Part shown: piece after piece, positions 67 to 57,220 of the stretch
Numbering within the stretch: the first letter of the stretch is position 1
How the letters are laid out: every line of letters starts with the position of its first letter
From: a virus
Taxonomy: Duplodnaviria > Heunggongvirae > Uroviricota > Caudoviricetes
IMG/VR virus record: IMGVR_UViG_3300013285_000009
Coordinates: 12,984-76,983 of that record
Length of the DNA stretch: 64,000 bases
Reading direction: 5' to 3' (one strand)
The notes under the pieces: generated by a model
What the model was told of the DNA's origin: nothing
Databases searched by the model: none
The model's input: only the letters and a program-made list of their open reading frames with translations
Translations under genes and position numbers: made by a program

Positions 67-2073
67 ATGAATCGTAGTGTAACTCAAGTATTATTTACTG
101 GTCGCCGACAAGTAACGACCGCAGACTTGTACCTAAGCATTGCATCTGAAAGCAACTCACACGCTCACTATTTCATGTTGAAATTCGGTATTAACAAGAC
201 CGAGTTCATTCAGCACTGGCAGAAAACGTACAAGGGTAATGAGGCAGTAACTCGTATATCTGAAAGTCAAGCAGAAGAAATTCTGGAAGAGTACACTGTT
301 AATCTGACTGAATTGGCACGTTCAGGTAAGCTTGAGCCGATGATCGGTCGTAGCAAAGAAATGGACGATATCGTTAACGTTCTAGCTAAACGATTCAAGT
401 CTAACGTATTGATGGTAGGTGATCCTGGTGTGGGTAAGACTGCTATTGCAGAAGGCTTGGCTCAAGCAATCGTTGATAAGACTATCCCTGCTTTCTTGTA
501 TGGTCACGAACTATACTCATTAGAAATTGGCAGCTTGCTTGCAGGTTCTAAGTATCGCGGTGACTTTGAAGAAAAAGTTAAGTCAGTATTAGAAGCATTG
601 AACACCAAGAAAAAGTCTATCTTGTTCATTGACGAAGCACATACTATGCAAGGCGCAGGTGGCTCTTCTACTGGATCAGTTGACTTTGCAAACATGATTA
701 AGCCTGCTATCACTAAAGGAACATTGAAAGTCATCGCAAGTACTACTTGGGAAGAGTTCTATGAATCATTCGAAAAGGATCGTGCATTGATGCGTCGATT
801 CTATCGTGTTGCAGTTGATGAGCCTTCGAATGAAGCTACTATTCATATCCTCAACGGACTGAGTAATAGATTAAGTGACTTCCATGAAGTCGAAATCACA
901 GAAGATGCAGTTATTGCAGCAGTTGATTCAGCAGCCCGCTATATCCATGATCGTAAGAATCCTGATAAGTCTATCGACTTGTTGGATGCAGCTTGTGCTA
1001 AGCAACGAGTTGATGGTAACGCGGGTGCGGTCATCACAAAAGAAATGATTCATGATCAAGTGGAACGTATGACAGGTGTACCTGCTGATAAGCTTAACGG
1101 TGATAACTATGATAGAATTTCCACATTGGAAATGAATGTCAAGGGTAAACTATACGGTCAGGATGCAACAGTCGAAAAAGTGCTTGAGCGTATCTATGTC
1201 AGTTTTGCAGGTATTGGTAATGAAACAAAGCCGACTGCTAGTTTCATCTTCTTAGGCCCAACTGGTACCGGTAAAACTGAATTAGCCAAGTTGTTGTCTA
1301 AGAATCTTGATATGCCATTGCTAAAGTATGATATGTCAGAATACGGTGAAAAGCATAGTGTATCGAGTTTAATCGGACCTCCTCCTGGCTACATCGGCTT
1401 CGGCGATAGTCAAGTTGGTGGCGGACGGCTTATCAGCGACTTGTCTAAAAATCCTCACTCAATTTTATTGTTTGACGAAGTTGAAAAGGCTCACCCTGAT
1501 GTGTTCAACATTTTCTTGCAATTGCTTGATGAAGGTCGGGTAACTGGTTCTAACGGTAAATCTGTTAGCTGCAAAAACTGTATCATTATCTTGACAAGTA
1601 ACTTAGGTTCAGCAGATAGTGAACGTAGTAATATCGGTTTTGGTAGTCAAGAAAAGACTGGTGAAGATGAAAAGGCATTGAAAGAATTCTTCAAGCCTGA
1701 ATTCAGAAACCGTATTGACTTGATTTGCAAGTTCTCCAAATTGGATATGCTAGCTATTAAGAAAATTGTTATTAAGTTCGCCGAAGACTTGAAGAAGAGT
1801 CTGTTGGACAAGCACAATATTTCATTGAATCTATCTGAGCCGGTAGTAGAATTCTTAGCTGAACAGGGGTATGATCCTAAGATGGGCGCACGTCCTCTAG
1901 CACGTAAGATTGATGAATTGATTCGTGTCCCTCTCAGCAAAAAAGTTTTGTTTGAGCGTATCAAGAATGCAACAATTGGTGCGGTAATGGTAGACGGCGC
2001 GATTTCATTCAATATCGTGCAAAAAGCGGCTGCAAGAATCGGAGATGACGGTGTCATTACCCTTGAAAGTTGA
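67..2073 (+). CDS. ClpA/ClpB-family AAA+ chaperone ATPase with two nucleotide-binding modules
   Basis: 668 aa; Walker A GDPGVGKT (D1) and GPTGTGKT (D2); Walker B LFIDEAH and LLFDEVEKAH; Clp_N-like N-terminal repeats. Confidence 0.8.
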   Translation: MNRSVTQVLFTGRRQVTTADLYLSIASESNSHAHYFMLKFGINKTEFIQHWQKTYKGNEAVTRISESQAEEILEEYTVNLTELARSGKLEPMIGRSKEMDDIVNVLAKRFKSNVLMVGDPGVGKTAIAEGLAQAIVDKTIPAFLYGHELYSLEIGSLLAGSKYRGDFEEKVKSVLEALNTKKKSILFIDEAHTMQGAGGSSTGSVDFANMIKPAITKGTLKVIASTTWEEFYESFEKDRALMRRFYRVAVDEPSNEATIHILNGLSNRLSDFHEVEITEDAVIAAVDSAARYIHDRKNPDKSIDLLDAACAKQRVDGNAGAVITKEMIHDQVERMTGVPADKLNGDNYDRISTLEMNVKGKLYGQDATVEKVLERIYVSFAGIGNETKPTASFIFLGPTGTGKTELAKLLSKNLDMPLLKYDMSEYGEKHSVSSLIGPPPGYIGFGDSQVGGGRLISDLSKNPHSILLFDEVEKAHPDVFNIFLQLLDEGRVTGSNGKSVSCKNCIIILTSNLGSADSERSNIGFGSQEKTGEDEKALKEFFKPEFRNRIDLICKFSKLDMLAIKKIVIKFAEDLKKSLLDKHNISLNLSEPVVEFLAEQGYDPKMGARPLARKIDELIRVPLSKKVLFERIKNATIGAVMVDGAISFNIVQKAAARIGDDGVITLES

Positions 2074-3363: not shown

Positions 3364-4641
3364 ATGAAAACAATTGTAATAATGCCCGGTGGCTTTCACC
3401 CATTTCATGCAGGTCATGCTGCACTATATCAAAGTGCTGTAAAAGCATTTCCTGGTGCTGATGTATACGTGGCTGCAACTAACGATACGAAAACAAGACC
3501 CTTCCCCTTTGCTATTAAAGAAAAGTTAGCTAAGCTAGCAGGTGTGGCACCTGGTCACTTCATTCAAGTTAAGAGTCCCTTCAAGGCAGAAGAAATCACT
3601 AGTCATTACAATCCTGATGAAGATGTGTTGATCTTTGTTCGTAGTGAGAAAGATAGAACAGAACAGCCTAAACCAGGTGGAATAAAGAAAGACGGCACCC
3701 CGGCTTACTTTCAGCCATACACCGGTAAAGGTATGCAATCGTTTAATAAACATGCATACATGGCTTATCTACCTACTGTAGAGTTTGGTCCTGGCATTAA
3801 AAGCGCAACAGAGATTCGCAATGCTTGGCCCACACTAGATGAACGCCGCAAGACAGCATTAGTTATGAGTTTATATCCAGTAACACAGAAGAATCCTAAG
3901 CTAGCTGCTAACGTAGTTAAGATGTTAGACATGGGCATGGGCGACGGCGGCGATGTTGTGGCAGAAGGTGCAGAAGAAGCATTGCAGTATGCTACTCAAG
4001 CACATGCCGGACAAACTAGATCCGGTGGTGAACCATATATTACCCATCCAATGCGTGTTGCTGATTCTATTAAACAATATAAGCAGTCACATAACCTAGA
4101 TGCTATTATTAGTGCTGCATTATTGCACGATACAGTTGAAGACACTGATACCACACATGAAGCATTACATGATCTGTTTGGTGGATTAGTTGCGTCATTG
4201 GTACAAGAACTTACTAGCAATCCTGAAGAAATCAAACGAGTGGGCAAGGCGGCTTACCTAGCACACAAAATGGCTGCAATGAGTAGCTATGCACTTGTGA
4301 TTAAACTTGCTGATAGATTGGATAATGTACAAGATATTGCAACTGCTAAGACTCCGCAGTGGAGAGCTAAGTATGCAGCAGAAACTAATCAAATTTTAAA
4401 CTACATTGAAAAAACTCGCGCATTGACCGGAACACATAGCAAATTGATTAGTTTGATTCGCGCCAAGTTGGCAGAAATTGATCATCCGCAGCAGGATGTG
4501 GCCGAGAATCTTGGATTAAACTATCCGGGTACATATGAACAAGAGCATGGTTCTGCAAATAATAAATCTTCTCGACACATAGTAAATATGACTACCGAAA
4601 GCAATGTAACCGAAAGTACTGATTATCTGTCGGAAAAATAA
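3364..4641 (+). CDS. fusion protein: N-terminal NMNAT/cytidylyltransferase-like (HxGH) domain plus C-terminal RelA/SpoT-type HD (p)ppGpp-hydrolase domain
   Basis: N-terminus MPGGFHPFHAGH resembles the NadM/NatV motif FQPFHTAH at 53207-54226; C-terminus has HAGQTRSGGEPYITHP, AALLHDTVEDT and KLADRLDN, the SpoT/Mesh1 hydrolase signature. Confidence 0.7.
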   Translation: MKTIVIMPGGFHPFHAGHAALYQSAVKAFPGADVYVAATNDTKTRPFPFAIKEKLAKLAGVAPGHFIQVKSPFKAEEITSHYNPDEDVLIFVRSEKDRTEQPKPGGIKKDGTPAYFQPYTGKGMQSFNKHAYMAYLPTVEFGPGIKSATEIRNAWPTLDERRKTALVMSLYPVTQKNPKLAANVVKMLDMGMGDGGDVVAEGAEEALQYATQAHAGQTRSGGEPYITHPMRVADSIKQYKQSHNLDAIISAALLHDTVEDTDTTHEALHDLFGGLVASLVQELTSNPEEIKRVGKAAYLAHKMAAMSSYALVIKLADRLDNVQDIATAKTPQWRAKYAAETNQILNYIEKTRALTGTHSKLISLIRAKLAEIDHPQQDVAENLGLNYPGTYEQEHGSANNKSSRHIVNMTTESNVTESTDYLSEK

Positions 4642-11115: not shown

Positions 11116-11583
11116 ATGAATACTTATACACTTGAAGTCCAAGAAGATACAGAAGGCGAATTGTTTCTAGAGTTTCCGGAAGACTTGCTTGCGCAAGTTG
11201 GATGGGAAACTGGCGACACGCTTGTTTGGACAGACCTCAAAGACGGTAGCTGGTCGCTGACTAAAGCGATTGAAAAACCGGAAACTCAATGGGTTCTCGT
11301 AGAAGCAGTATCGACGTTCCGCGAACGTTATATGGTTGAAGTACCAATCGGTACTGATGCATATGGTAAAGATAAAGCAACGTGGGCACTTGATACAGTC
11401 ACTATGAATGAGGCTGAACAGTTCAGTTCAGAACATTTAGGTGAACAAATTGTATCACACCGTGTAGTAACTAAAGAAGAAGCATTGGAGCTGTGTGACA
11501 ACGACAATGATTACACTAATTCTTGGGACGAAGAAACAAAAATGAAAAACTTTTTTACACCTTGGAAAGAACAAAATGCTTAA
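11116..11583 (+). CDS. hypothetical protein
   Basis: in-frame ATG; ORF track's 11074 start is TTG inside the upstream gene. Confidence 0.45.
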   Translation: MNTYTLEVQEDTEGELFLEFPEDLLAQVGWETGDTLVWTDLKDGSWSLTKAIEKPETQWVLVEAVSTFRERYMVEVPIGTDAYGKDKATWALDTVTMNEAEQFSSEHLGEQIVSHRVVTKEEALELCDNDNDYTNSWDEETKMKNFFTPWKEQNA

Positions 11584-12264: not shown

Positions 12265-13818
12265 ATGAAAAAGCTAACAGCAGTATCGTCACTTTTTCTA
12301 ATTATATTAGCCGCATGCGGTGGGGGCGACTTAGCGATATCAGGTACAACCGATCCACTCGCAAGTCACCCCGCTAATTTTTCAGGAAATATATACTCAC
12401 GTACTCATAGCACATTTTCCAACTCGATTGATGTATATTCAACCCCGTTGGCCGATGCTACTATTAGTTTGGGTACTCAAACTATAAATGCAGATGGCAT
12501 GGGTAATTTTGTCGGAACTGTTCCTACAGTGGTGCTAGCATCTGATACAGTCAACATCACCAAATCCGGATATATTCCGATCAACATTGCAAGATCATTG
12601 ATTGACTCGGCTTCTACTAATATAGGACTATACAGTACATCGAGTGTTAATAGTAGACCGGGATTTATCGGCGGAGTATTTACAATGGACGCCGGTGGCT
12701 ACTTGAATATGATATACAAGCGCAACCTTTTCAACTCTACTTACGATAGAATCAAAACTCAAACAGGAGCTAACTTAGTTGCATCATCTGACCCGGTATG
12801 GGTTGAATCATACGATGTGCAGGCCGGGACGGTAAGTATGAGTAGCACCTCGCAAATACCCATGATGACTAGACAGCAGTACACTACCTTAGTAGGATTG
12901 GCTCATAGTCAGAATATGCAATATATGATGCAGTTGGGGGTTTATCCTGCAGGAAGTCTTCAGATGCCATGGACTGTTCCCGCAAACAATACAGTATTTT
13001 GGACTGCTTGGTTTGCTGCATACAAAGAGATTGTTATTCAATATGCACAGATTGCAACAGACTTAAACATTGAATATATTTCACTTGGAATGAATCATGG
13101 GTTTATGAGTGCATTGCCAGTATCATACTGGAGTGACTTAGTTATCTCAGTCAGAAATACCGGGTATACCGGAAAAATTGTTTATCAAGCAATGATGAAG
13201 CCCGGAGTGTGGTCAGAGACTGACGGTTTCAATACGGCGGCAACTGGTAATCTCACTACTAGGCAGAAAAATTTACAATTTGTTAAACTTTTCGACTATA
13301 TAGTGCTAGACATATATAACATTGTAGGAAACGCTGATTCAAATACTAGTGCACCACGCAGTGATATGCGTAAATCATTTGCGACTATGTTACATAGTTT
13401 CACTGACTATCCGGTTCCACTCATGGTACAAATAGGAACACCGTCTATTCGCGGTGGCTCGGTAATTACTGATTACGTTGAACCGTGTATCGTATGTGTT
13501 TCAATCGCGCCGACTAAGACGATGGATTTGATGGAGCAAGCAGACGTATATCAAACTATAGGTGAAGTAATTAATGCAACACCAACCGGTAATGGTAATG
13601 TTATGGGGTTGATAAGCTGGGGCTATTGGTTTACTGATAATTTCAGAACAAATGTAACCCGCAAATCAACGGGTATAAATTCAGATGGTACACTTGTTGA
13701 TTCTACTGTCGCTATCGGGAATCAAAACTTAATATCAGCATACGACAAGTCAGCAAGTATTCGAGGGAAACCCGCTGAATCAGTATTTGGGTGGTGGATT
13801 AATAAATTCGCTCAGTAA
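12265..13818 (+). CDS. lipoprotein, function unknown
   Basis: signal peptide with lipobox ILAAC; 517 aa; Ser/Thr/Asn-rich. Confidence 0.5.
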   Translation: MKKLTAVSSLFLIILAACGGGDLAISGTTDPLASHPANFSGNIYSRTHSTFSNSIDVYSTPLADATISLGTQTINADGMGNFVGTVPTVVLASDTVNITKSGYIPINIARSLIDSASTNIGLYSTSSVNSRPGFIGGVFTMDAGGYLNMIYKRNLFNSTYDRIKTQTGANLVASSDPVWVESYDVQAGTVSMSSTSQIPMMTRQQYTTLVGLAHSQNMQYMMQLGVYPAGSLQMPWTVPANNTVFWTAWFAAYKEIVIQYAQIATDLNIEYISLGMNHGFMSALPVSYWSDLVISVRNTGYTGKIVYQAMMKPGVWSETDGFNTAATGNLTTRQKNLQFVKLFDYIVLDIYNIVGNADSNTSAPRSDMRKSFATMLHSFTDYPVPLMVQIGTPSIRGGSVITDYVEPCIVCVSIAPTKTMDLMEQADVYQTIGEVINATPTGNGNVMGLISWGYWFTDNFRTNVTRKSTGINSDGTLVDSTVAIGNQNLISAYDKSASIRGKPAESVFGWWINKFAQ

Positions 13819-14300: not shown

Positions 14301-16253
14301 ATGGCAATCATCCGCGATCCAATCGACCCGACTAATATTCTTAACGTCAACGCAGACGGCTCCGTCAACGTGGAGATTAGTAATTGGCCACCATCTGTAC
14401 CCGGTCCCCAGGGCTCTACCGGTGAGCAAGGTTTGACCGGTGAGCAAGGTTTGACCGGTCCCCGGGGTCTTACTGGCCCTATAGGTTTGCAAGGCGCGAC
14501 AGGCCAAACTGGCATTCAAGGTCTAGTGGGTCCGGCCGGCACAGGTGCTACTGGTCTAACAGGAGCTGCTTCTACTGTAGTTGGGCCCACTGGCCCAACT
14601 GGCCCCATCGGTTTAACGGGGGCGACTGGCCTAACTGGTGCTGCATCTACTATTGCTGGACCAACAGGTGCAACAGGTGCTGCAGGATCGTTCGGCGGCG
14701 CAGCATTTGACTATATGTATAGTAGTTCAGTTACCGGAATAGCTGACCCGGGCAGCTATAGCTTTAACAATATGAATTTAACGTTAGCGACTATGATGTA
14801 TATCAACAACATAGACGAGAACGGAGTGTTAACAACTAACTTCTTAGAGACAATTGATAGCTCAACTTCGGCGATTAAGGGCCACTTTAGTGTATCAGAT
14901 GAAGCCAACACAGTTGCATTTACGCTATTTGCCATCATCGGCTCACACACATTGAGTAACAATGTTTATGCAATCCCGATTGCATGGTTGGCGGGAGTAA
15001 CATCAATTCCTGATGCAAATCATAGTATTATAACCTTTGCTAGAACGGGAGATAAAGGAGATACCGGAGTCACTGGTGCTAAAGGGACAACCGGTAATAC
15101 AGGTGCGACTGGCGCACAAGGCAACACCGGATTAACCGGATTAACCGGTGCTGCATCTACTATCTCCGGGCCCCCGGGAGCAACGGGATCTATTGGCGCG
15201 GCCGGCCCGATCGGTAACATTGGGCCGGCCGGCCCAATGGGGCCTAGCAGCGGAGGTACTTCAGTTACCACCTTCTATGACAGCACACAGTCAAACAATA
15301 TTAAATATTCTCATAGCAGCAACAATCAACTGATCTCCGGGGCAGCTATCACTACTGACTTGGCCGGCACATACCGTACTGAATTCAATGCAGAATATTA
15401 TTGCACTCCTTCTATAGTATCTGCACAGTGTGCTACTGATTTGTCTTTGTTGGTTTCGACGCTCAACTCACTACCATCAACCGGTGTCCACGCAGCAGCA
15501 TTCGGCGCGGGCGAAACACTGGCTCCCGGTGTATACACGGTAGCAGGTGCAAGCACACAGGGCGGCAACTTAGCGTTTGACGGCCAAAACAATCCAAACT
15601 CAGTTTGGGTCATTCGAGTTAATGCAGCATTTGCTACGGCAGCAGGCGCAACGATGTCGTTGATTAACGGAGCACGAGCTGCAAACATCTTCTGGATAAT
15701 TAACGGCGCACCGACGTTCGGTGCTCAAGGTGTATTTAAAGGTACATTGATTGCCATTGCAGCAGCAATAACAACCGGTGACACTATTGACTTAGAAGGA
15801 AGATTTTTTAGCACAACTGGTGCAATTGCTACTACTAATGCTACATTAAATGTACCATTTGGTCCATCTGTAATTAATTTAGGTTCATTACAAAACTTTG
15901 TACTGTTTACTGCACTCGGTGCAGTGGGCAACACTGGTTCTATTGCTTGCCTAGGCGATATTAGTACAGGCGGTGGCGCAATTGCCGGCTACACCGGTTC
16001 TGTCGGAAGTATCTATGTACCAACTGATACCGGTACTCGTGCAACGTTTGGCATATATGTCAACGGAAGTCTAATTGCAAACTCAACACGCCTAGGACAG
16101 AGTATCCCTAACACACCGGGATTTGGCAAAGCAGCCGTACTATCCGGAATTGTACCGACTACTGCGGGACAGACAATTGAAGTTCGAATCAAGGTTGATG
16201 TTGGTGTATTTAACATCACGTCAATGAATCTTTACACCGTCAAGATTGCATAA
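14301..16253 (+). CDS. tail fibre or receptor-binding protein with collagen-like G-x-T triplet repeats
   Basis: [37 protein letters not shown].. and a second Gly-X-Y block [28 protein letters not shown]; Ala/Gly/Thr-rich C-terminal domain. Confidence 0.65.
14421..14456 (+). repeat. 18-bp perfect tandem duplication GGTGAGCAAGGTTTGACC x2 within the collagen-like region
   Basis: seen directly; encodes GEQGLT x2. Confidence 0.8.
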
Positions 16254-27281: not shown

Positions 27282-29426
27282 ATGATTCTGAATTCTGCTC
27301 CCCAAGATCAAGCTGTTCTGTCTAATGTAGGACAGATCGGTGAGTTCCGCATTCGTAATAGTGCGAAGGCATTCTCTATTCTTTCTTCGGGTCTTTACGC
27401 AAATAAAGTTCGTGCTATCATTCGTGAACTTTCGTGCAATGCGATTGACTCGCATACCGCAGCCGGTAAAAGTTCTACCCCGTTCGATGTTCACCTGCCA
27501 AATTCACTTGAAGCATGGTTCTCTATTCGTGACTATGGTACTGGACTATCGCACGATCAGGTTACTAGCATCTACACCACGTACTTTGAAAGTACCAAAA
27601 CTAATTCGAACGAATTCATCGGTGCACTGGGTCTAGGTAGCAAGTCTCCCTTCTCTTACACTGACAACTTCACGGTTACTGCTATTCAAAATGGCCGTAA
27701 GGGTGTGTACACTGCATTCATTAATGAACACGGTGTACCCTCTATCGCCCAAATGATGGAAGAAGAAACCACTGACCCAAGCGGTGTTGAAGTTAAGTTC
27801 TCGGTTAACGACCGTTACGACTTTGATAAGTTTCGGCAAGAGGCTCGGCAAGTTTACACACACTTCAAACAGCGCCCTGTAGTGTCCGGGGCACATGATT
27901 TCAAATTCATTGATACTGATTACCTTGAAAGAGATATCATCCCCGGTGTCCATACTGTCAGTGATTCGCGTAGCAGCTATGCGGTCATGGGTAATATTGC
28001 ATATCCAATTGATGTGCCTAGGGCAGACTCCACGATCAACGAAGCAATGAAGGCAATGCTGCAATGCGGCCTGGTGATTGAATTCAGTATCGGTGATCTT
28101 GACTTTCAAGCATCACGTGAAGGTCTGTCTTATGTACCGATGACTATCGCAAGCATCAAACGCAAGTTGGAAGAACTAACTGCTCAATTGTCAATTCACA
28201 TTGCGGTTGAAGCTGACAAAATTGATAACTTGTGGGAACGTGCTGTTTATCTGGCAAAGCGTAAGGGTGAAGCATTGTGGTCACAGGCTGTCGTTAAGTA
28301 CGTAACCGACACTAAGTTTCCTTTGCTGGACGCGGTAAGTCCACGCTATCGTTATGATCAACTGAAAAAGTTCAAACTGACTGTCGCGGATCTAGCATCC
28401 AAGTATAACATTGTGTTGAAGGGCTTTAGTCGTAGTCGCGGTGTGCAAGTTGCTTACAACTTGAAAAGTAATAGTGAGTATGATCAGGCTACCAACAAGC
28501 ATGTTGCGTACTGGGGTATCACTGTTAGCACGGATGCATTCTTTGTGTTCAACGATACAAAGACCGGAGCACTGGAGCGTAGTAAGTTTCACTGGAAGAA
28601 TGCTACTATGAATAGTCACAGTGAAGTGATCTATGTCATTGAAGCAGCCGATAAGAGTAAGCCGGTGCAGAAGGATTTGTTCTTGAAGGACATCATGAAT
28701 CCTCCTGAAAGTAAGATTCTGAAGGCAAGTGATTTGCGGATGCGCGAACGTGCAGCTAACATGGGCAAGAATGTAACTATTCTGCAACTTACCTCACGCT
28801 CACGTGGATACAACTCTACAATGGTTTGGGCAGACGCGGGTAAAGCTGATACGTTTGACAAGTCTACAACTTTTTACTATCTTCCTCTGAGCGGCTTCTC
28901 TTCATTGGGTAAGGTCAATGACGTAAAAGTATTGCATGAAAATCTGAATAACAGCAACCTGTTCACCGGTACTATATACGGTGTTCGTAAGGCTGATATG
29001 GATTTTATTCTGACTCAAAAGAATTGGGTCAACATTGATACAATGATTACAGGGAAATTGACTAAGTTGGGTCAGGCCGATGTGATGGGAATGGTCAAAC
29101 AGGCTATTGACTTTAAAGAGTTTTTTCAGTATAATGTGTGTAAGCTGATCAAGAAAGATAGTCCATACAAGGTGTTGCATGAGACTTTCAAGGACGTGAA
29201 AGTTACAGATCCAAAGCAGCGACACAGTTTGGAATTTTTGTGCAATGCATACAACGTAACTACTCAGGCAAATATTGACCCAAGTAAGTTGATTGCTAAG
29301 TATAAAGATGACATTAATGCACTTAAAAAACGTTACCCGTTAATTAAGGTAGTGAGTAAGTACAGCGTAGAAGATGCCGATTTGGCCGAATATATTAATT
29401 TGATTGACAACAGTAAAGGTATTTAA
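27282..29426 (+). CDS. Hsp90/HtpG-like GHKL ATPase
   Basis: N-box IRELSCNAIDS (compare HtpG LRELISNASDA), G1 IRDYGTGLS, G2 IGALGLGSKSPF; 714 aa. Confidence 0.5.
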   Translation: MILNSAPQDQAVLSNVGQIGEFRIRNSAKAFSILSSGLYANKVRAIIRELSCNAIDSHTAAGKSSTPFDVHLPNSLEAWFSIRDYGTGLSHDQVTSIYTTYFESTKTNSNEFIGALGLGSKSPFSYTDNFTVTAIQNGRKGVYTAFINEHGVPSIAQMMEEETTDPSGVEVKFSVNDRYDFDKFRQEARQVYTHFKQRPVVSGAHDFKFIDTDYLERDIIPGVHTVSDSRSSYAVMGNIAYPIDVPRADSTINEAMKAMLQCGLVIEFSIGDLDFQASREGLSYVPMTIASIKRKLEELTAQLSIHIAVEADKIDNLWERAVYLAKRKGEALWSQAVVKYVTDTKFPLLDAVSPRYRYDQLKKFKLTVADLASKYNIVLKGFSRSRGVQVAYNLKSNSEYDQATNKHVAYWGITVSTDAFFVFNDTKTGALERSKFHWKNATMNSHSEVIYVIEAADKSKPVQKDLFLKDIMNPPESKILKASDLRMRERAANMGKNVTILQLTSRSRGYNSTMVWADAGKADTFDKSTTFYYLPLSGFSSLGKVNDVKVLHENLNNSNLFTGTIYGVRKADMDFILTQKNWVNIDTMITGKLTKLGQADVMGMVKQAIDFKEFFQYNVCKLIKKDSPYKVLHETFKDVKVTDPKQRHSLEFLCNAYNVTTQANIDPSKLIAKYKDDINALKKRYPLIKVVSKYSVEDADLAEYINLIDNSKGI

Positions 29427-29427
29427 A

Positions 29428-30438
29428 ATGAGCTATCCATATTTGATTCAAGGTGCTAACATCACCGTTGTGATTGGTAACGTCCCTCACACAATCAGCA
29501 AAACCCATCTGACCTACGAACAGGTTAAAGATGCTATTAAAGCCGGCGACTGGGAAACAGTCAAAGACATTATCGAACCTAAGAAAGTTATTCTGAATTA
29601 TGGTCGTGGTAATGTAAGTGTCCAAGGCGATCAATTGTTCTGGAAGGGCAAGGAATTTCACAGTGCATTGGCAAGTCGTATGATTGCAATGTTGCAAGAA
29701 GGCTTCACTATTGAGCCCATGGTTGAATTCATGGAAAACTTGATGACTAACCCTTCGCGTCAAGCTGTCAATGAACTGTACGGCTTCTTGGAAAAGAACA
29801 ACTTGCCCATCACCCCCGATGGTTGCTTCTTGGCTTACAAGAAAGTGCGTGACAACTATTTCGACGTGCATTCTGGCACGATGGATAATAGTCTCGGCAA
29901 TGTGGTTTCTATGGAACGTAACGAAGTTGATGACAATCGCAACAACACTTGTTCGGCTGGCCTGCACTTTTGCGCACAAAACTATTTGAAGTCATTCGGT
30001 GGTGAACGTGTCGTGATTGTTAAAATCAATCCTCGCGATGTAGTCTCTATTCCAACTGACTACAATGAAGCTAAGGGTCGTGCTTGTCAGTATGAAGTGA
30101 TCGGTGAAGTTGGTTCTTCGGAAGATGACACCAATGCTGCATTCAGCAAGCCTGTTCAATCGAATGCTAGCAACAATACTTTCGTTCGTGCAAATACTGA
30201 ACCAAAGTTGGGTTCATCTGACTTCTATCGTGGTTACTCTGATGGATTCTGTGGTAGTTCGTACAATCTTCAAGTAGCCAATGCACTGCATTATCGTGAA
30301 GGTTACGAAAAGGGTGAAGATGCTTCTCGGAATGATTCGGTCGAAGTGTATCGTTTTGTTGCATCCGTGACTAAAACAGCAGGTAATGCCCCGTCTTACT
30401 GGGACGGTGGTTCTTGGCCTCTTTCAGGTAAGTTCTAA
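29428..30438 (+). CDS. hypothetical protein
   Basis: in-frame ATG 1 nt after upstream stop; ORF-track start 29404 is TTG. Confidence 0.4.
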   Translation: MSYPYLIQGANITVVIGNVPHTISKTHLTYEQVKDAIKAGDWETVKDIIEPKKVILNYGRGNVSVQGDQLFWKGKEFHSALASRMIAMLQEGFTIEPMVEFMENLMTNPSRQAVNELYGFLEKNNLPITPDGCFLAYKKVRDNYFDVHSGTMDNSLGNVVSMERNEVDDNRNNTCSAGLHFCAQNYLKSFGGERVVIVKINPRDVVSIPTDYNEAKGRACQYEVIGEVGSSEDDTNAAFSKPVQSNASNNTFVRANTEPKLGSSDFYRGYSDGFCGSSYNLQVANALHYREGYEKGEDASRNDSVEVYRFVASVTKTAGNAPSYWDGGSWPLSGKF

Positions 30439-38214: not shown

Positions 38215-38544
38215 TCAAAATGGATTAAATGAACTCCCGCATCCGCAAGTAGTTTGGGCCTGTGGATTGCTAATCTTAAAGCTTGCACCCATCAAGTTTT
38301 CTACGTAATCTACACTCGCATTCAGTAAGTATTGAGCACTCAGACTATCAACTAGTATGACGGTATCACCTGAGGACACTTCAAAATCATCTTCATTTTT
38401 CTCATCATCCATAGCAAAGCCGTAGCTCATTCCACTACAGCCCCCACCTTGCACATACATACGCAAACGTACTGCGGGATTATTTTCTTCTAATAAAAGT
38501 TCTGCTATTTTATCGGTAGCGTTTTGTGTAATAGTAATGTTCAT
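38215..38544 (-). CDS. erpA: A-type iron-sulfur cluster carrier ErpA/IscA (HesB family)
   Basis: near-collinear with E. coli ErpA: RLRMYVQGGGCSGMSYGF ... VDYVENLMGASFKISNPQAQTTCGCGSSF (three conserved Cys). Confidence 0.9.
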   Translation of the reverse strand: MNITITQNATDKIAELLLEENNPAVRLRMYVQGGGCSGMSYGFAMDDEKNEDDFEVSSGDTVILVDSLSAQYLLNASVDYVENLMGASFKISNPQAQTTCGCGSSFNPF

Positions 38545-43037: not shown

Positions 43038-43799
43038 CCAAGTCAGTTTTTCCTTAAGGAATTTAGTTCTATTGTTCACGTATATGCGATAATTGTCTAT
43101 GATTGATTGGGTCGGGACTCTATTTGCAAACGCAGCTATCTTAGTCAGACCCACATAATGCTCCTGATTAGGTGTATATAATTCTGAATAAGGTAGCGCA
43201 AGTACTTGATACTGCATTGAAGCAGGAACAATCGGGGTTGCGAAATAATCTGAGGATGATTCACGTAACTGTCGTTGTAACTTTGCTGTTAGATATAGCC
43301 ACAGTCCGTGAATGTCATCCTTCGATAATGAACCCGTATACGGTTTACCAAATGCTTTTTGATAGTGTTTCAAAAAGTATTGATATGACATGGGTGTCAT
43401 ATCAATACCTGAAATCTGTGCCTCTACTGCTGCAATATGATTCTTGTATAGCGTGTTCGCTGCAATTTCAGGTAAATCGTCATTCGTGAACGTAATGATG
43501 ATAACTTTCACATCCGGCAGGTTGATTGCAATATGATCGTATCTAGGATAACGGTGACTGAATAAAACGCCCGGGCAAGTATTATCGATGAATCTGAATG
43601 TTTCATATATATCAGGAGCATGTATATCACCGTCTTTTATATACCCCCAGTTTTTTGAAAAATCAGTTCGACTATGCGATGAATTATATGTTGAGTACGT
43701 TACTTCCGTATTAGATTCAGTAAGCATATCCCATAGAACTCCTGACACGAATCTGCCCGATGCTCCACCAATAAAACTTACAATAAATTGTTCTTTCAC
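43032..43799 (-). CDS. hypothetical protein
   Basis: 255 aa; N-terminal SFIGGASGRF glycine-rich loop. Confidence 0.4.
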   Translation of the reverse strand: MKEQFIVSFIGGASGRFVSGVLWDMLTESNTEVTYSTYNSSHSRTDFSKNWGYIKDGDIHAPDIYETFRFIDNTCPGVLFSHRYPRYDHIAINLPDVKVIIITFTNDDLPEIAANTLYKNHIAAVEAQISGIDMTPMSYQYFLKHYQKAFGKPYTGSLSKDDIHGLWLYLTAKLQRQLRESSSDYFATPIVPASMQYQVLALPYSELYTPNQEHYVGLTKIAAFANRVPTQSIIDNYRIYVNNRTKFLKEKLTWL

Positions 43800-44548
43800 T
43801 AGTATGACTTTGCAATGTGGGTAGCTTCGGGAATGCGGGTACGTGTGTTCTTACTGCCCAACAATACTACGGTTCTAATCCCATTTATAGTATGGACCAT
43901 CATCACTATGCATCCGCCGCTTTTGTTGATGAACCCGGTCTTACTAACAATAAAGTCATATCCATGGCCTACTAAAGGATTTGTATTATGCAGTACGATC
44001 CATTTATTTTTCTTAATCGGAAGCTTGATGGCAGATATGTTACTTGCTGCAATTAATGCAGGGTATTTACTCGCGGCCCGCACCAACTTTAATAAGTCAG
44101 TGGGTGTACTAACATTTTCACTACGTAAGCCAGTTGGATCTAATAACCGAGTATCAAACATTTCCAATTCTTGTACCTTGCGATTCATCATGTGCAAGCA
44201 TTCATAGTATCCACCAGTGTACTGTTCACATAAAATCCTAGCAGCATTATTATCTGATTTTACGATAGCCATATCAATCAGCATCTGCCGCGTCAGTGGA
44301 GTACGGTAAAGTTTAGTAGGCATAATTTCATTAAGTGGTTGGTTACCATCGATCACAGTCATAACTGTGATTAACTTGGTAATGCTGGCTATAGAGCGAA
44401 CATCACTTGTATTCACTCCTTCTAGTACTCTACCATTTTCATCTGCTACCAACCATGCATGGGCCGTAATACGAGGCTCTGCTGCATGGAGGATAGATGA
44501 TAGTAACAGCAGCATTACTATAATAAATTTTCTAATCATTGTTTCCAT
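43799..44548 (-). CDS. D-alanyl-D-alanine carboxypeptidase/endopeptidase (peptidase S11, PBP5/PBP7-like) with signal peptide
   Basis: SxxK SIASITK, SxN SDNN, KTG VSKTGFINKSG; signal peptide MLLLLSSILHAAEP. Confidence 0.85.
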   Translation of the reverse strand: METMIRKFIIVMLLLLSSILHAAEPRITAHAWLVADENGRVLEGVNTSDVRSIASITKLITVMTVIDGNQPLNEIMPTKLYRTPLTRQMLIDMAIVKSDNNAARILCEQYTGGYYECLHMMNRKVQELEMFDTRLLDPTGLRSENVSTPTDLLKLVRAASKYPALIAASNISAIKLPIKKNKWIVLHNTNPLVGHGYDFIVSKTGFINKSGGCIVMMVHTINGIRTVVLLGSKNTRTRIPEATHIAKSY

Positions 44549-44742
44549 AACATAAAGTTTATGTAATCATATTCGGCCGTAAAGTGAAATTCGTATTTTC
44601 CGGGGCGTGACCCGGCGCTATCAATAACACAATAATCCCAGTGTTCAACACTATTTGCGTGGCACCAATTGATAACAGCAGTCAGATCACCAAACGCTAG
44701 TTCAATTATCGCAGTATAATTATACAGCGCACTTGTGGACAT
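44536..44742 (-). CDS. hypothetical protein
   Basis: 68 aa. Confidence 0.35.
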   Translation of the reverse strand: MSTSALYNYTAIIELAFGDLTAVINWCHANSVEHWDYCVIDSAGSRPGKYEFHFTAEYDYINFMLWKQ

Positions 44743-45238
44743 TCACACCACTCTTCTCTAAAAACTGTATCCCCGAAGTATCACGATAAGCATTGCGATA
44801 ATATACACTATTGATGCCGCTTTGATATATGAGTTTTGCACAATCGATACACGGAGCATGAGTAATAAAAATAGTAGCACCGTTACCAGACTCGGAACTA
44901 CGAGCAAGTTTAGAAATTGCGTTAGATTCTGCATGGAGTACCTCTGATTTAGTTTTTAGTCGATAGCGACCATGCATTAGATTACCATCTGCGTCTGTAT
45001 ACGTTCCTTCATATGGCCAGCCCTCTTCAATTTCTTCAGGACCCAACCATCCGCCAGCGCTGCACCACTGCACATCCTCACAATTGTTATCCCAACCTGC
45101 AGGCATCCCATTATAACCGATACTAATGATTCGGTCATCTTTAACAACGATGGCACCCACGTGTAATCTACGAGCATAGCTAAGTTCTGCGAAAGTCTCC
45201 GCAGTTTTCATGTATGCATCAATGAATTTTTGTTTCAC
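44720..45238 (-). CDS. dCMP deaminase
   Basis: HAESNAI ... PCIDCAKLI zinc-binding CDA motifs. Confidence 0.85.
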   Translation of the reverse strand: MKQKFIDAYMKTAETFAELSYARRLHVGAIVVKDDRIISIGYNGMPAGWDNNCEDVQWCSAGGWLGPEEIEEGWPYEGTYTDADGNLMHGRYRLKTKSEVLHAESNAISKLARSSESGNGATIFITHAPCIDCAKLIYQSGINSVYYRNAYRDTSGIQFLEKSGVNVHKCAV

Positions 45239-45441
45239 TTTTTACCCCAGGTGATGCTATTCCAAATTCTTTCATGAAGAAAATATAATATAGTATTCGC
45301 AGTTAATTGGATCGTTGCTATTGTGCCGGACACAAGTAAATTTCCTAATATAAAATATGATATGGCGAATGTGGACGCTGTGCCTATTATTCGCCAACTA
45401 ATAGTTTTTACTAAAGAACGATAACTCGAATCACGTGTCAT
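45235..45441 (-). CDS. small membrane protein
   Basis: 68 aa; two hydrophobic helices. Confidence 0.4.
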
Positions 45442-46006: not shown

Positions 46007-46345
46007 TTATTTATTGATTGTAATACCGGACCATCGTTTAAGTTTGTCAAACTTATTTTGCTTGGCTTGTTCGATACCTTCTACTGTCGCACCGATATTC
46101 AAATCAGTAAGTAGTTCAACCATGGCAAAGAGATCGCCGATCTCTTCTTCCAACATATTCATATTAGTACAGGCCTTGCCCGGCTTGATCTGGTCTGGCC
46201 CAAAGCGCATACACTTACTAACTGCTTGGACAACCTCTGCACATTCTTCTTGCAGGATCAGTAAAATTTCTCTGGTTTCGTCGTTCATTGTAGTTGTTAT
46301 ATGTTTCAAAACATGCCGGGCTTTATTGTTCGGGTGCCCGGCCAA
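46007..46345 (-). CDS. MazG-like nucleoside-triphosphate pyrophosphohydrolase
   Basis: EECAEVVQAV and EEEIGDLFAMV (ExxE...ExxD metal-binding helices). Confidence 0.6.
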   Translation of the reverse strand: MAGHPNNKARHVLKHITTTMNDETREILLILQEECAEVVQAVSKCMRFGPDQIKPGKACTNMNMLEEEIGDLFAMVELLTDLNIGATVEGIEQAKQNKFDKLKRWSGITINK

Positions 46346-52523: not shown

Positions 52524-53210
52524 ATGAACTACCCTATTACTCAACTTCACCGGGATAACTTTAAGCCCACTTATCTGTATATCAAGCAGCATACAGAAAC
52601 GGGCAAACTCTATTTTGGAAAAACTACCAAAAAGAATGTTGAGAGGTATACTGGTTCTGGAATACATTGGGGCCGTCATATCAGTGCTCACGGGAAAGAC
52701 AAAGTAGTTACACTTTGGTATTGTTTATACACAGAGATCGAAATTTTAGTTGAAACTGCTTTGGCAATGTCGGCAATAATGGATATAACTGAATCAACTG
52801 ATTGGTTAAACTTTAAGCCAGAATCTGGATTAGATGGCGGCTCGTTTGTTGGGTTCAATGGATGGGCTGGTAAGAAACATTCTCCAGAGCACATCGAAAA
52901 ATTAAGAAAACTCGGAAGAGAACGCCCTGTTACTGAAAATATGCGGAATAGTTTTTTAAAGCGTGATTTTAATGGCGCTAAAAATGGCATGGCATTACAC
53001 ATAGATATTTTCGATGACACTGGATTGCTAAGATTTAAATGCCATGGAAATTTCGAGAAATTATGCATTGAAAATAATCTACCTATGGGACCGCTTAAGA
53101 TTTCGTATGCCAGAGGAGGAAAACCAATTTTTACATCAAAATCCACAGGTAGATTGAAAGATTTATCCATGTTAAAATATAAAAATTGGTTTGCTAAAAT
53201 AGCAGTTTAA
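52524..53210 (+). CDS. GIY-YIG-type homing endonuclease (Seg-like), plus-strand insertion
   Basis: YLYIKQHTETGKLYFGKTTKKNVERYTGSG variant GIY-YIG core; only plus-strand gene in this part of the minus block. Confidence 0.55.
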   Translation: MNYPITQLHRDNFKPTYLYIKQHTETGKLYFGKTTKKNVERYTGSGIHWGRHISAHGKDKVVTLWYCLYTEIEILVETALAMSAIMDITESTDWLNFKPESGLDGGSFVGFNGWAGKKHSPEHIEKLRKLGRERPVTENMRNSFLKRDFNGAKNGMALHIDIFDDTGLLRFKCHGNFEKLCIENNLPMGPLKISYARGGKPIFTSKSTGRLKDLSMLKYKNWFAKIAV

Positions 53211-54226
53211 TTACCAAGGAAGTGGGTCAGGATCTCATAATGATCTTCAAAGCATTCTTCACTACGAACTTCTGCGATAGGAACCCACCGTGCTTTTTCG
53301 GCATCGTCACTGCCTTTTACTTTTGGCAGTTCACCATCGGGCAACTGAATATAAAATGCATGTGTGATGATACGACCACGCGGGCTCCGATCCACAGCAT
53401 CAAATACCTTGCTTCGTACAATAGATCCACGCAACACAGGACCGGGTACTTTGATCAATGTTTCTTCACGCAATTCACGGATAGCAGCATCTTCCACATT
53501 CTTGTCAGTCTGTGCATTTACATAGCCACCGGGCAATGCCCACAATCCCTTACCTGGTTCAGCGCGGCGCTTAATCATCAGCACATGCCCACTTTGGATA
53601 ACAACTGCGTCAGCAGTAACAAAGATTGGAGGATACTTCAAACTAGCGTACTGCTTTGCATTTTCAATCAAGAATTCACGTTCACGGATAATTTGTTCGT
53701 ACTCAGGGGTCTCTTTAAATTGATCCAAGAAGTCAAACGTAGTCTTTGGAACAACGTTCTTAATGAAGTTCATATTTACATCACGTTTGAAATACAAGTT
53801 ACGAATGTCAGTCGCATCCAGTGGCTCCAGCAGTTCAACTTCTTCAAAGCCCCATTGCGGAAACGTATCAAGATAGAAACTTGACGGGTCTTTCTTGTGA
53901 CCAATAATGCCAATCTTTTCGCCAGGGACAGTATGCTTGGCAACTAGTGCTTGCACACGAACAGCCCAGGCTTGGTCATTGTAGATAGTATCGGGATTTG
54001 CTTCCACGTGAATAGACAAGTCAAGTCCGCCAGTGGCATACTTGATCATTTTGTAACGTTCATCAAACGTGAACGGGTTCTTGTAAGTGCGAGGCTGATT
54101 AGCTGACCCGCAAATAAAGATTAGTTTTTTGCAATTTGCAGTGGCACGATGCGCCAAGAGTAAGTGAGCAGTGTGGAACGGTTGAAAACGTCCGATTAGG
54201 ACAAGTGTATCGTATTTTTTAGACAT
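53207..54226 (-). CDS. natV: bifunctional NMN adenylyltransferase / Nudix ADP-ribose pyrophosphatase (NatV/NadM-Nudix)
   Basis: N-terminus LIGRFQPFHTAHLLL (HxGH NMNAT); C-terminal Nudix box GGYVNAQTDKNVEDAAIRELREETL. Confidence 0.85.
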   Translation of the reverse strand: MSKKYDTLVLIGRFQPFHTAHLLLAHRATANCKKLIFICGSANQPRTYKNPFTFDERYKMIKYATGGLDLSIHVEANPDTIYNDQAWAVRVQALVAKHTVPGEKIGIIGHKKDPSSFYLDTFPQWGFEEVELLEPLDATDIRNLYFKRDVNMNFIKNVVPKTTFDFLDQFKETPEYEQIIREREFLIENAKQYASLKYPPIFVTADAVVIQSGHVLMIKRRAEPGKGLWALPGGYVNAQTDKNVEDAAIRELREETLIKVPGPVLRGSIVRSKVFDAVDRSPRGRIITHAFYIQLPDGELPKVKGSDDAEKARWVPIAEVRSEECFEDHYEILTHFLGN

Positions 54227-55783: not shown

Positions 55784-57220
55784 TTATTTACGAGCGTTTG
55801 CCCGAACTTCTTCAAAGGTGATTTCTTTTACAAGCACTCCATCACGAAATACTTCATTCAGCACATTAGTCCAACCACCGGTGCCTTTGTCAGTCCATCC
55901 CATTGGCTGAGTTACTGCTGACTGATATTCACCACCTGATTCCCAAAGAGTAACACGACCACGCTTGCTACGCTTACCACTATCAGTGATAGGGTCTTTG
56001 TAAACATCGCGCCACACCAAACTTTTGAAAGGACCGTGATCACGTTCAGTAGAATATTCACGAACACCAATCGCGCTACACTTCATTGCCCACTGCATTG
56101 TGTCACGATCCACACGTTGCAGCAATGCACCACCTTGACCAAACGCCACGTTGTCTGCACTGAATCCTGCAATTTCCATACAGAACAAGATGCTGTGGAT
56201 GCTTGCTTGATCAATACCATCACCTTGGATGATACGCACTGCTGGGTTTAGAACACGATAGCCTTTAGCGTTGACAGTTGAACCAAAGTGTTTTTCAAGA
56301 ATGTACAAACACTTTACAACCACGTCAGAGGGGTTGCCCGAGTCCGGGCGGACGACCAAAGTTGCGCCACTGTCAAGGACGTCTTGTTTAAGGACTGTGC
56401 CCCAGAGTTCACAGGCTTTGTAAATGTCGTAGCTGTCCGAGACGCAAGCGAAGATGCCCCCTGCTTTTGCGTTTTGCTTGACCATGTTGCGGTACGAGTC
56501 AACTTCATTTTCTTTACCCCAAGATGTTACAGTAGAGTGTTCCATAGCTGGAATACTGAACCCAGCAATGCCAGCGTTATAATACTCCCGAGCGTAAAGA
56601 ATGCCCGAAACAGTATCCGACCCCATAAAGTTGACGAGATGGGCAGCGCCGCCAATTGCAGCAGATTCGAGACTAGATACACCACGAGCACCAAAGTCAT
56701 GAAGTTTGAAATCGATAGTAGATGGGTCACCAGTTTTTTCCAATGCAGCAAGAATGATTTTTTTAGATTCGTAGCTGTTAGTTGCTACTGTAGTAGGATA
56801 CCAAATTGCGCGGAGCAATGCAGTTTCTAGGAACGAGGTGAGCCAGAAGCAGTTGGGATCCGTGTTCTCAATAGTTGCCAATACATTTTTAATAGGGACA
56901 AGTGTGCCTTCAGGAACAGCTTTGATAACGACAGGAAGTTTACCTCCGTGTACCCGTAGAATGTATTCCCATCCTTCTCTGTTGAAAGGTTCTCCGTGAG
57001 CAGTGATGATCGCATCAGCAAGATCAATGTCGGCTTGAACGATTGGCTCAATTAGATACTCCTTAATAAATGCTTGTAATCCGAAGAAAACAGTATCATT
57101 CCATTTACCACCGCGTGATTCAATGTATGAATAAACGTATTCAGTACCAGGGGGATACTGATTAAATTGACTGAATTTGTAACTATCCGAATTGAGAATG
57201 ATGTTTTTAAAACTTGACAT
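55784..57220 (-). CDS. nadV: nicotinamide phosphoribosyltransferase (NadV/NAMPT)
   Basis: collinear NAMPT hallmarks: NSDSYKFSQ, IKAVPEGTLVP, TDPNCFWLTSFLET, KLHDFGARGVSS, GGAAHLVNFMGSDT, RPDSGNP, IQGDGID, SGKRSKRGR. Confidence 0.95.
   Translation of the reverse strand: MSSFKNIILNSDSYKFSQFNQYPPGTEYVYSYIESRGGKWNDTVFFGLQAFIKEYLIEPIVQADIDLADAIITAHGEPFNREGWEYILRVHGGKLPVVIKAVPEGTLVPIKNVLATIENTDPNCFWLTSFLETALLRAIWYPTTVATNSYESKKIILAALEKTGDPSTIDFKLHDFGARGVSSLESAAIGGAAHLVNFMGSDTVSGILYAREYYNAGIAGFSIPAMEHSTVTSWGKENEVDSYRNMVKQNAKAGGIFACVSDSYDIYKACELWGTVLKQDVLDSGATLVVRPDSGNPSDVVVKCLYILEKHFGSTVNAKGYRVLNPAVRIIQGDGIDQASIHSILFCMEIAGFSADNVAFGQGGALLQRVDRDTMQWAMKCSAIGVREYSTERDHGPFKSLVWRDVYKDPITDSGKRSKRGRVTLWESGGEYQSAVTQPMGWTDKGTGGWTNVLNEVFRDGVLVKEITFEEVRANARK

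Follow-up and report, generated by a model that had tools for sequence, protein, structure and literature searches.

A predicted ErpA-type iron-sulfur carrier and a 7Fe ferredoxin in a lineage of large uncultured phages

A-type iron-sulfur (Fe-S) carriers encoded by phages form, together with IscU, a recognized class of auxiliary metabolic genes (AMGs) (PMC5332604, PMC9038755). Fe-S-assembly genes have been counted among viral AMGs since 2011, beginning with marine viromes (Sharon et al. 2011, as cited in PMC5332604), and A-type carriers have been reported in 14 environmental viral genomes (Nishimura et al. 2017, PMC5332604). Radical S-adenosylmethionine (radical-SAM), Cas4, Grx, and ClpP genes accompany A-type carriers in viral genomes (PMC5332604). 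In addition, erpA and iscU are found in HMO-2011-type phages (PMC9038755), and Fe-S cluster proteins occur in viruses from under the Ross Ice Shelf (PMC10721903). Here we analyze a stretch of 64,000 nucleotides (hereafter, the window; positions 12,984 to 76,983 of the IMG/VR record IMGVR_UViG_3300013285_000009, Caudoviricetes), in which a preliminary description had pointed to an ErpA/IscA-type Fe-S carrier and a 7Fe ferredoxin (FdxA). The novelty that it implied for a phage ErpA was overstated, given the published class, and both proteins already have families in PHROGs v4 (phrog_17776 for ErpA and phrog_8732 for FdxA). Biochemical tests of a phage A-type carrier are not known to us, and the identity of the clients has been a matter of guesswork.

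In the T4-like environmental genomes with published viral Fe-S AMGs, the carrier occurs alongside radical-SAM enzymes and Clp components, as it does in the lineage studied here, but the window belongs to a different phage lineage. The closest rIIA protein in GenBank phages is 30% identical and comes from PA5oct-like Pseudomonas jumbo phages. A megablast search with 11 kb around the genes found no match among 50,697 GenBank phage records, and a literature search on the phage lineage found nothing relevant. Nor did the literature searched contain a description of the block formed by IF-1, a superoxide dismutase (SOD)-like gene, and ErpA, or of the pairing of ErpA with a 7Fe FdxA and a Dps protein. 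This block, the viral breadth of 7Fe FdxA, and a QueE with a split cluster motif, described below, seem to be undescribed in that literature.

An ErpA-type carrier and its conserved gene block

The protein of 109 amino acids (aa) is assigned by family, fold, and ligands to the ErpA-type A-type carriers, because it passes the equivalog cutoff, its model adopts the A-type-carrier fold, and its ligand cysteines are invariant. It scored 143.7 bits against the NCBIfam ErpA equivalog NF010147 (cutoff, 117), 118.3 bits against TIGR00049 (cutoff, 58.8), and 70.3 bits against Pfam Fe-S_biosyn PF01521 (cutoff, 26.3; residues 1 to 103), and its PHROG match is phrog_17776. Other NCBIfam models failed, with 72.8 bits for IscA (cutoff, 150.6), 68.9 bits for SufA (cutoff, 136.2), and a score far below cutoff for NfuA. 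The protein aligned over its full length with Haemophilus influenzae HI1723 (PDB 2apn, 107 bits), Aquifex aeolicus Aq_1857, and Escherichia coli IscA and SufA, and GGGC36SG and C100-G-C102 are preserved in the alignment with HI1723, IscA, and SufA, in the pattern C-x(~63)-C-G-C. All three ligand cysteines (C36, C100, and C102) are invariant in 89 of 89 ErpA sequences. An AlphaFold2 model built with 40 homologs had a predicted local distance difference test (pLDDT) score of 79.6, with low confidence in the C-terminal C-G-C tail, and its top ten Foldseek matches in the PDB were all A-type carriers (TM-score, 0.66 to 0.77).

Among A-type carriers, ErpA makes up class ATC-I (Vinella et al. 2009, PMC2682760). 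The phage protein shares length, fold, and the three ligand cysteines with bacterial members of the class (E. coli YadR/ErpA; HI1723, 2apn), but it is only about 45 to 55% identical to them, belongs to a phage, where IF-1 and tail-fiber genes share its block, and is known here from its sequence. The preliminary description of a 109-aa ErpA-like protein with three cluster-ligating cysteines thus holds: the strings it quoted, GGGCSGMSYGF and TTCGCGSSF, are both found in the open reading frame (ORF), and a substitution of the ligands, which it had named as the finding that would speak against it, was looked for by alignment, in which C36, C100, and C102 are intact. The coordinates it gave for the ErpA and ferredoxin ORFs are also right, but the strand required correction, as both ORFs lie on the minus strand and plus-strand translation at these coordinates meets many stops.

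The window is phage DNA. Pfam and PHROG scans recovered phage genes across it, including rIIA/rIIB, tail fibers, Clp, NAD salvage, and nucleotide enzymes. An identical ErpA protein is present on the ENA contig ERZ27247438:k141_226922 (131,875 bp), in which the window corresponds to about positions 27,490 to 91,489, and in the independent Logan assembly SRR5830789, which reproduces the locus. We read this source contig outward from position 11,500 to position 129,619 (118 kb, about 90% of the contig) and found phage genes along all of this length but no block of bacterial housekeeping genes. We class ErpA as a viral AMG and not as host contamination, given the phage genes on both sides over 118 kb, the conserved viral synteny, and recovery in two independent assemblies.

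ErpA relatives with 47 to 83% identity are present on at least 87 IMG/VR viral contigs, many of them 200 to 525 kb long. Among 5.8 billion proteins, the best 120 matches (64 to 100% identical) are all metagenomic, with no bacterial isolate. The only named one among them, a 'Ca. Nanopelagicus MAG' (metagenome-assembled genome), is on a 4-kb contig that is probably phage too. Genuinely cellular ErpA proteins are at most about 55% identical to phage ErpA. The best match in a GTDB scan, from a 'Haliscomenobacter MAG' (59%), was rejected as a cellular ErpA, since its contig carries the phage block, belongs to this phage lineage, and was mis-binned. A tblastn search of the GenBank phage collection with ErpA returned 11 records, mostly bacterial DNA or unverified fragments; those named 'Acinetobacter phage MD-2021a' were rejected as phage, being bacterial chromosome with the order erpA-anmK-tyrS. 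The mislabeled database entries are CAKLQH020000026.1, NZ_JBBAKG010000036.1, and P0098 (the 'Acinetobacter phage,' 'Haliscomenobacter,' and 'Nanopelagicus' cases). Only LR756504 and LR756511, from huge phages, look genuine among the 11 records.

In a neighbor-joining tree without support values, all IMG/VR ErpA proteins except those of loci L081 and L082 grouped in a single clade, whose sister was the gammaproteobacterial ErpA set (E. coli, Acinetobacter, and Gammaproteobacteria MAGs). The root was E. coli IscA. The two huge-phage proteins, LR756504 and LR756511, both branched outside the clade, which implies that these phages probably acquired ErpA separately. Three loci (L073, L081, and L082) have an IscU gene (77 to 78% identical to E. 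coli IscU) beside the A-type carrier, and L073 has three copies of the carrier; the L081 and L082 carriers lie outside the main clade and represent either separate isc-operon-like acquisitions or host DNA. Within the phage clade, 29 positions, including all ligands, are invariant. Synonymous sites are saturated and nonsynonymous divergence (dN) is 0.11 to 0.30, and the single dN/dS ratio of 0.27 is unreliable owing to this saturation. GC content, GC at third codon positions (GC3), and codon usage of ErpA and FdxA are within about 1 standard deviation of the window genes. From this clade, the invariant positions, the saturated synonymous sites with low dN, and the matching composition, we read ErpA as an old, constrained core phage gene, long resident in a lineage of large uncultured phages.

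Gene neighborhoods were compared over the best 80 loci per query in IMG/VR, with flanks of up to 10 kb. The usual order is a 131-aa ORF, a WYL_2 protein, IF-1, an Fe/Mn SOD-like gene, ErpA, and tail-fiber-like genes. IF-1 stands beside ErpA in 66 of the 80 loci and reaches 97% identity among relatives, a 145-aa ORF is found in 44, and homologs of the 374-aa fiber-like protein follow ErpA in 41. This last protein has no Pfam or PHROG match, and the name "tail-fiber-like" comes from its repetitive sequence and from the fiber-like clusters of its relatives. The SOD-like protein is recognized by Pfam Sod_Fe_C (84.8 bits) and a DWWEH motif (e.g., L026:6682-7236). In the phage studied here, tblastn did not find the SOD-like gene, which is absent from its closest relatives too, and its position is taken in all of them by one to three SGNH-like paralogs. 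The longer SGNH-like protein adjoining ErpA has no Pfam or PHROG match; its alignment shows GxSxxxG, NxGxxG, and DxxH blocks, and the top PDB match of its profile is the esterase 9otv (E = 0.002). The paralogs are thus probably SGNH-type hydrolases, a weak assignment, and not Fe-S proteins. No terminator was found between IF-1 and ErpA.

Radical-SAM genes above the Pfam threshold lie within 10 kb of ErpA in seven relatives (L039, L069/L070, L033, L035, L057, and L076). The gene ends 7 nucleotides (nt) before ErpA in L039 and stands between IF-1 and SOD in L069/L070; a fatty-acid desaturase gene is near ErpA in one relative. With near-monophyletic ErpA in a conserved block on at least 87 contigs, the IF-1/SOD-like/ErpA arrangement shows a core, selected gene and not a stray pickup.

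The ferredoxin, the Dps-like protein, and candidate clients

The second protein is, from its sequence, an Azotobacter-type 7Fe ([3Fe-4S][4Fe-4S]) ferredoxin, and the earlier designation of it as near canonical is borne out. It scored 158.4 bits against NCBIfam FdxA_Protbact NF045490 (cutoff, 135) and carries Pfam Fer4 with a C-terminal DUF3470 (55.7 bits; PHROG match, phrog_8732). Gap-free alignment to Azotobacter vinelandii FdI structures covered 104 of 107 residues (E = 4e-40) and placed all nine FdI cysteines in register (8, 11, 16, 20, 24, 39, 42, 45, and 49). Of these, we take 8, 16, and 49 to be [3Fe-4S] ligands and 20, 39, 42, and 45 to be [4Fe-4S] ligands. The aligned residues, the nine cysteines, and the DUF3470 extension are common to phage FdxA and A. 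vinelandii FdI/proteobacterial FdxA; unlike the bacterial proteins, this one is phage encoded, with no cognate reductase seen on 118 kb of the contig. FdxA relatives are present on at least 294 IMG/VR contigs and are more widespread than ErpA. FdxA has a conserved block of its own, in the order clamp loader (68 of 80 loci), FdxA, dCMP deaminase (50 of 80), and PhoH (66 of 80), near which GroES, DnaJ, ClpA/B, MazG, and peptide deformylase genes also occur.

The Dps-like ferritin noted in the preliminary description is supported by its Pfam match and by intact ferroxidase residues (H24, H36, D51, and E55). Against PDB 8ff9 it scored 100 bits, and the pattern FHW...H...D-x3-E is kept in the alignment with 8ff9 and 2d5k. 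It is called Dps-like because it falls below the NCBIfam Dps equivalog cutoffs (best, 41.9 bits against 114). Unlike ErpA and FdxA, the gene has a markedly lower GC content than the other window genes (GC z = -2.4; GC3 z = -2.2) and may have entered more recently or from another source. The homology matches behind the ErpA, FdxA, and Dps-like assignments are strong and well outside what chance would give, and we read all three as core, constrained genes of the lineage. A cofactor theme is common to them, but they do not form an operon.

In agreement with the earlier remark on the lack of an evident Fe-S enzyme in the window, none of its 131 ORFs contains a CxxxCxxC motif, and no Fe-S client was recognized among about 50 ORFs scanned with Pfam and PHROGs. 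Pfam, PHROG, and PDB searches gave no match for one 12-cysteine ORF, whose AlphaFold2 model from the single sequence was unusable (pLDDT, 40.8); this ORF could encode a zinc ribbon or an unrecognized metal-cluster protein. The suggestion that an Fe-S enzyme might be encoded elsewhere in the genome was right with respect to a QueE-like radical-SAM protein of 291 aa on the contig, although NrdG, also proposed, was not seen in 118 kb.

The QueE-like protein matched phrog_2076 ("QueE-like radical SAM domain"; E = 4e-46, residues 2 to 290), and its only PDB matches are three QueE entries (6nhl, 4njg, and 5tgs). The ITGGEP SAM motif is preserved, and phage C73 (CDSYASW) is aligned to the third cluster cysteine of Bacillus subtilis QueE (CDSAFTW). 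Its scores against five NCBIfam QueE models (39 to 50 bits) fall far short of the cutoffs (200 to 300), and its cluster motif is split (C32-x3-C36-x36-C73), not the canonical CX3CX2C or CX14CX2C. We call the protein only QueE-like because of these missed curated cutoffs and the noncanonical motif. The three cysteines are the sole invariant ones in 81 of 81 IMG/VR sequences, with an insert of 34 to 39 residues, and close relatives are present on at least 592 viral contigs. The split motif may represent an undescribed QueE variant.

FolE and QueD-like genes lie 3 to 6 kb from the QueE-like gene, and QueC, DpdA, DpdL, and NrdG were not recognized on 118 kb of the contig. Cellulophaga phage phiST, in whose DNA 7-deazaguanine takes the place of guanine, likewise has FolE, QueD, and QueE without QueC (Cui, Hutinet et al. 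2023, PMC10516641). The phage contig differs from phiST in its QueE-like motif (CX3C-X34-39-C), in the CNLIHGY sequence of its PTPS, and in that no DpdA or DpdL was recognized, and it is known here from its genes. These genes may therefore specify a phiST-like or a new 7-deazaguanine pathway.

Proposed role and alternatives

The explanation we favor, with a probability of about 0.6, is that ErpA is functional and would deliver clusters during infection to phage Fe-S proteins and to needed host enzymes. ErpA would take Fe-S clusters built on host ISC/SUF scaffolds and hand [4Fe-4S] clusters to apo-proteins, and Fe-S maturation would thereby be sustained as host expression declines and oxidative damage builds. 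Its likely clients would be the QueE-like enzyme, FdxA itself, and the host enzymes that infection still needs. FdxA would most plausibly supply low-potential electrons, for example, to reduce radical-SAM clusters, and would presumably be reduced in turn by a host ferredoxin-NADP+ reductase, since no ferredoxin reductase was recognized on 118 kb of the contig. Dps would serve as a buffer for free iron. The literature is compatible with this picture: radical-SAM enzymes can be activated by ferredoxins (PMC10470005), and a matching electron donor is often needed by foreign Fe-S enzymes, while A-type carriers are versatile (PMC8896826).

Several observations weigh against this explanation. ErpA has no recognizable Shine-Dalgarno sequence. 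The QueE-like gene lies about 21.5 kb past the right end of the window and about 47 kb from ErpA, and within the 8- to 10-kb flanks of QueE-like loci, relatives of ErpA, FdxA, and the QueE-like protein never occur together. ErpA and FdxA belong to different conserved blocks and are within 10 kb of each other in only 8 to 10 of 80 loci. Because FdxA stands in a separate block, synteny gives no link between the two, and their connection is one of shared cofactor logic; that they work together, as the preliminary description had supposed, is shown by nothing found here. To our knowledge, the physiological role of FdxA has not been settled even in bacteria. In 57 of 80 loci, ErpA comes immediately after the SOD-like gene, its commonest neighbor, which suggests a general role in oxidative stress. 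Finally, heterologous A-type carriers were unnecessary for foreign IspG in E. coli (PMC8896826), and a phage-specific carrier is therefore not obviously required for compatibility. The versatility of A-type carriers (PMC8896826) argues that what ErpA adds is not specificity but capacity or robustness under stress, a reading that fits its adjacency to SOD.

That adjacency points to protection and resupply in oxic cells at least as strongly as to a dedicated phage client. As a less probable alternative, ErpA may have no dedicated phage client and act within a protection cassette, joined by SOD in most relatives and by Dps in this phage. The cassette would repair or resupply clusters in host Fe-S enzymes (respiratory complexes and IspG/IspH, for example) and thus keep energy and precursors available until lysis; such a role overlaps the explanation we favor and differs from it only in the clients. 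The stress and proteostasis genes of the contig (ClpA/B, ClpP, ClpS, DnaJ, GroES, and HSP20) would suit it, as would the aerobic essentiality of E. coli ErpA, reported to act via IspG/IspH (Loiseau 2007, as cited in PMC10721903; PMC2682760). However, this phage keeps ErpA without the SOD-like gene, which was either lost or never present, and phage-encoded radical-SAM clients exist in the lineage. Whether ErpA and FdxA are related in function at all is a separate matter, and we tentatively allow that they are not, with FdxA instead supporting nucleotide or DNA metabolism, for example, by reducing an enzyme from its own replication and nucleotide block. The rarity of loci with both genes fits this view, as do their neighbors, which are the clamp loader, PhoH, dCMP deaminase, and MazG for FdxA and IF-1, SOD, and tail-fiber genes for ErpA. 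Nevertheless, no FdxA neighbor is a known ferredoxin-dependent enzyme, and FdxA, a 7Fe protein that requires maturation, is at least a potential ErpA client. A tighter coupling, in which ErpA and FdxA act as a dedicated pair that matures and reductively activates the split-motif QueE, letting the FolE/QueD/QueE pathway keep pace with a heavy, phiST-like replacement by 7-deazaguanine in the phage DNA, seems doubtful to us. Changes near the cluster in E. coli QueE are reported to set reductant specificity (Grell 2019, as cited in PMC10470005), and the 34- to 39-residue insert could thus make the QueE-like enzyme depend on the phage ferredoxin.

Two further alternatives are very improbable. One is that ErpA is a recent host-derived passenger, or that the contig is bacterial, prophage, or chimeric, so that ErpA has no selected viral function. 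Most tblastn matches in GenBank phages are indeed bacterial DNA, as in 'Acinetobacter phage MD-2021a,' and the loci with IscU beside the carrier (L073, L081, and L082) may be host-like. This idea is largely refuted by the phage genes throughout 118 kb and the locus in Logan SRR5830789, together with the phage clade, the conserved synteny, the matching composition, and the saturated synonymous sites with a conserved protein. The other is that ErpA serves virion assembly by supplying a tail component with iron or an Fe-S cluster, as could be suggested by the tail-fiber-like genes located just after it, on its own strand, in most loci. Lambda gpL-like tail-tip proteins bind [4Fe-4S], and the tip of the T4 long fiber binds iron. 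However, the proteins downstream of ErpA have 0 to 2 cysteines and no cluster motif, and the adjacency may merely mark a gene-block boundary.

Wider gene content and significance

Coordinates of the main genes and of other features are collected in Table 1. To the left of the window, the contig encodes a giant 2,900-aa protein, GroES, a clamp loader, PhoH, DnaJ, and the full-length ClpA/B protein, and its right-hand genes include FEN, a helicase, ClpP, SprT, ClpS, HSP20, DNA ligase, UvdE, glycosyltransferases, and PolB. The proteostasis set on this one contig is unusually full (ClpA/B, ClpP, ClpS, DnaJ, GroES, HSP20, and an SprT-like protease). An NT5C nucleotidase is also encoded in the window, in which no tRNA genes were found. 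The HD_4 protein and MazG make modulation of alarmones or nucleotide pools plausible, and some relatives also encode the NAD synthase NadE (L039:4629-5411).

Table 1. Features of the window and of the adjoining contig (window positions unless marked as contig or L195 positions)
Feature	Length	Coordinates	Strand	Remarks
ErpA-type A-type Fe-S carrier (predicted)	109 aa	38215-38544	-	Ligands C36, C100, C102
Tail-fiber-like repeat protein	374 aa	37066-38190	-	24-nt gap downstream of ErpA
SGNH/GDSL-like hydrolase (probable)	253 aa	38557-39318	-	Directly upstream of ErpA, 12-nt gap
Shorter SGNH-like paralog	173 aa	39305-39826	-	Without C-terminal DxxH block
IF-1 (InfA) homolog	71 aa	39826-40041	-	Pfam eIF-1a, 78.6 bits; start of conserved ErpA block
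Conserved protein, upstream block member	131 aa	40321-40716	-	63/80 loci; phrog_27048
7Fe ([3Fe-4S][4Fe-4S]) ferredoxin, FdxA/Azotobacter FdI type (predicted)	107 aa	45438-45761	-	
DUF2061 small membrane protein		45235-45441	-	Pfam, 74 bits; between FdxA and dCMP deaminase
dCMP deaminase		44720-45238	-	Pfam dCMP_cyt_deam_1, 73.6 bits; downstream of FdxA
S11 D-alanyl-D-alanine carboxypeptidase/endopeptidase homolog		43799-44548	-	Signal-like N-terminal segment
MazG pyrophosphohydrolase		46007-46345	-	
Dps-like mini-ferritin	146 aa	8213-8653	+	Pfam Ferritin, 82.9 bits; phrog_3636
ClpA/B-like ATPase	756 aa (full gene)	67-2073	+	Window holds last 668 aa; start left of window
HD_4 (RelA/SpoT-hydrolase-type) protein		3364-4641	+	N terminus cytidylyltransferase-like (sub-threshold Pfam)
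Tail-fiber-like protein		14301-16253	+	Collagen repeats and ice-binding-like domain; PF11999, 78.8 bits
rIIA and rIIB		27282-30438		
NAD+ salvage pair, NAMPT and bifunctional NMNAT-Nudix		55784-57220 and 53207-54226	both -	
12-cysteine ORF	189 aa	62907-63476	-	C-terminal CxCxxC...CxxC; directly downstream of FEN exonuclease gene
QueE-like radical-SAM protein	291 aa	Contig 112,995-113,870 (L195:15750-16625)	Same as ErpA	
FolE, GTP cyclohydrolase I		L195:9327-10001		NCBIfam, 321.7 bits (cutoff, 202)
QueD-like PTPS		L195:12025-12534		Pfam, 54.7 bits; phrog_2389, E = 6e-34; CNLIHGY instead of CxxxHGH
DfrB-type dihydrofolate reductase-like protein	62 aa	L195:12531-12719		
ORF ending GGLHCITSD	400 aa	L195:14166-15368		Amidinotransferase-like by eye
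DUF6614 protein		L195:15368-15700		

Overall, one phage contig carries a compact set for Fe-S chemistry, with the predicted carrier ErpA, the electron carrier FdxA, the iron buffer Dps, and the QueE-like protein as a candidate client. If the link to this client is true, viral Fe-S genes would be tied to DNA hypermodification and anti-restriction defense rather than to general host metabolism.

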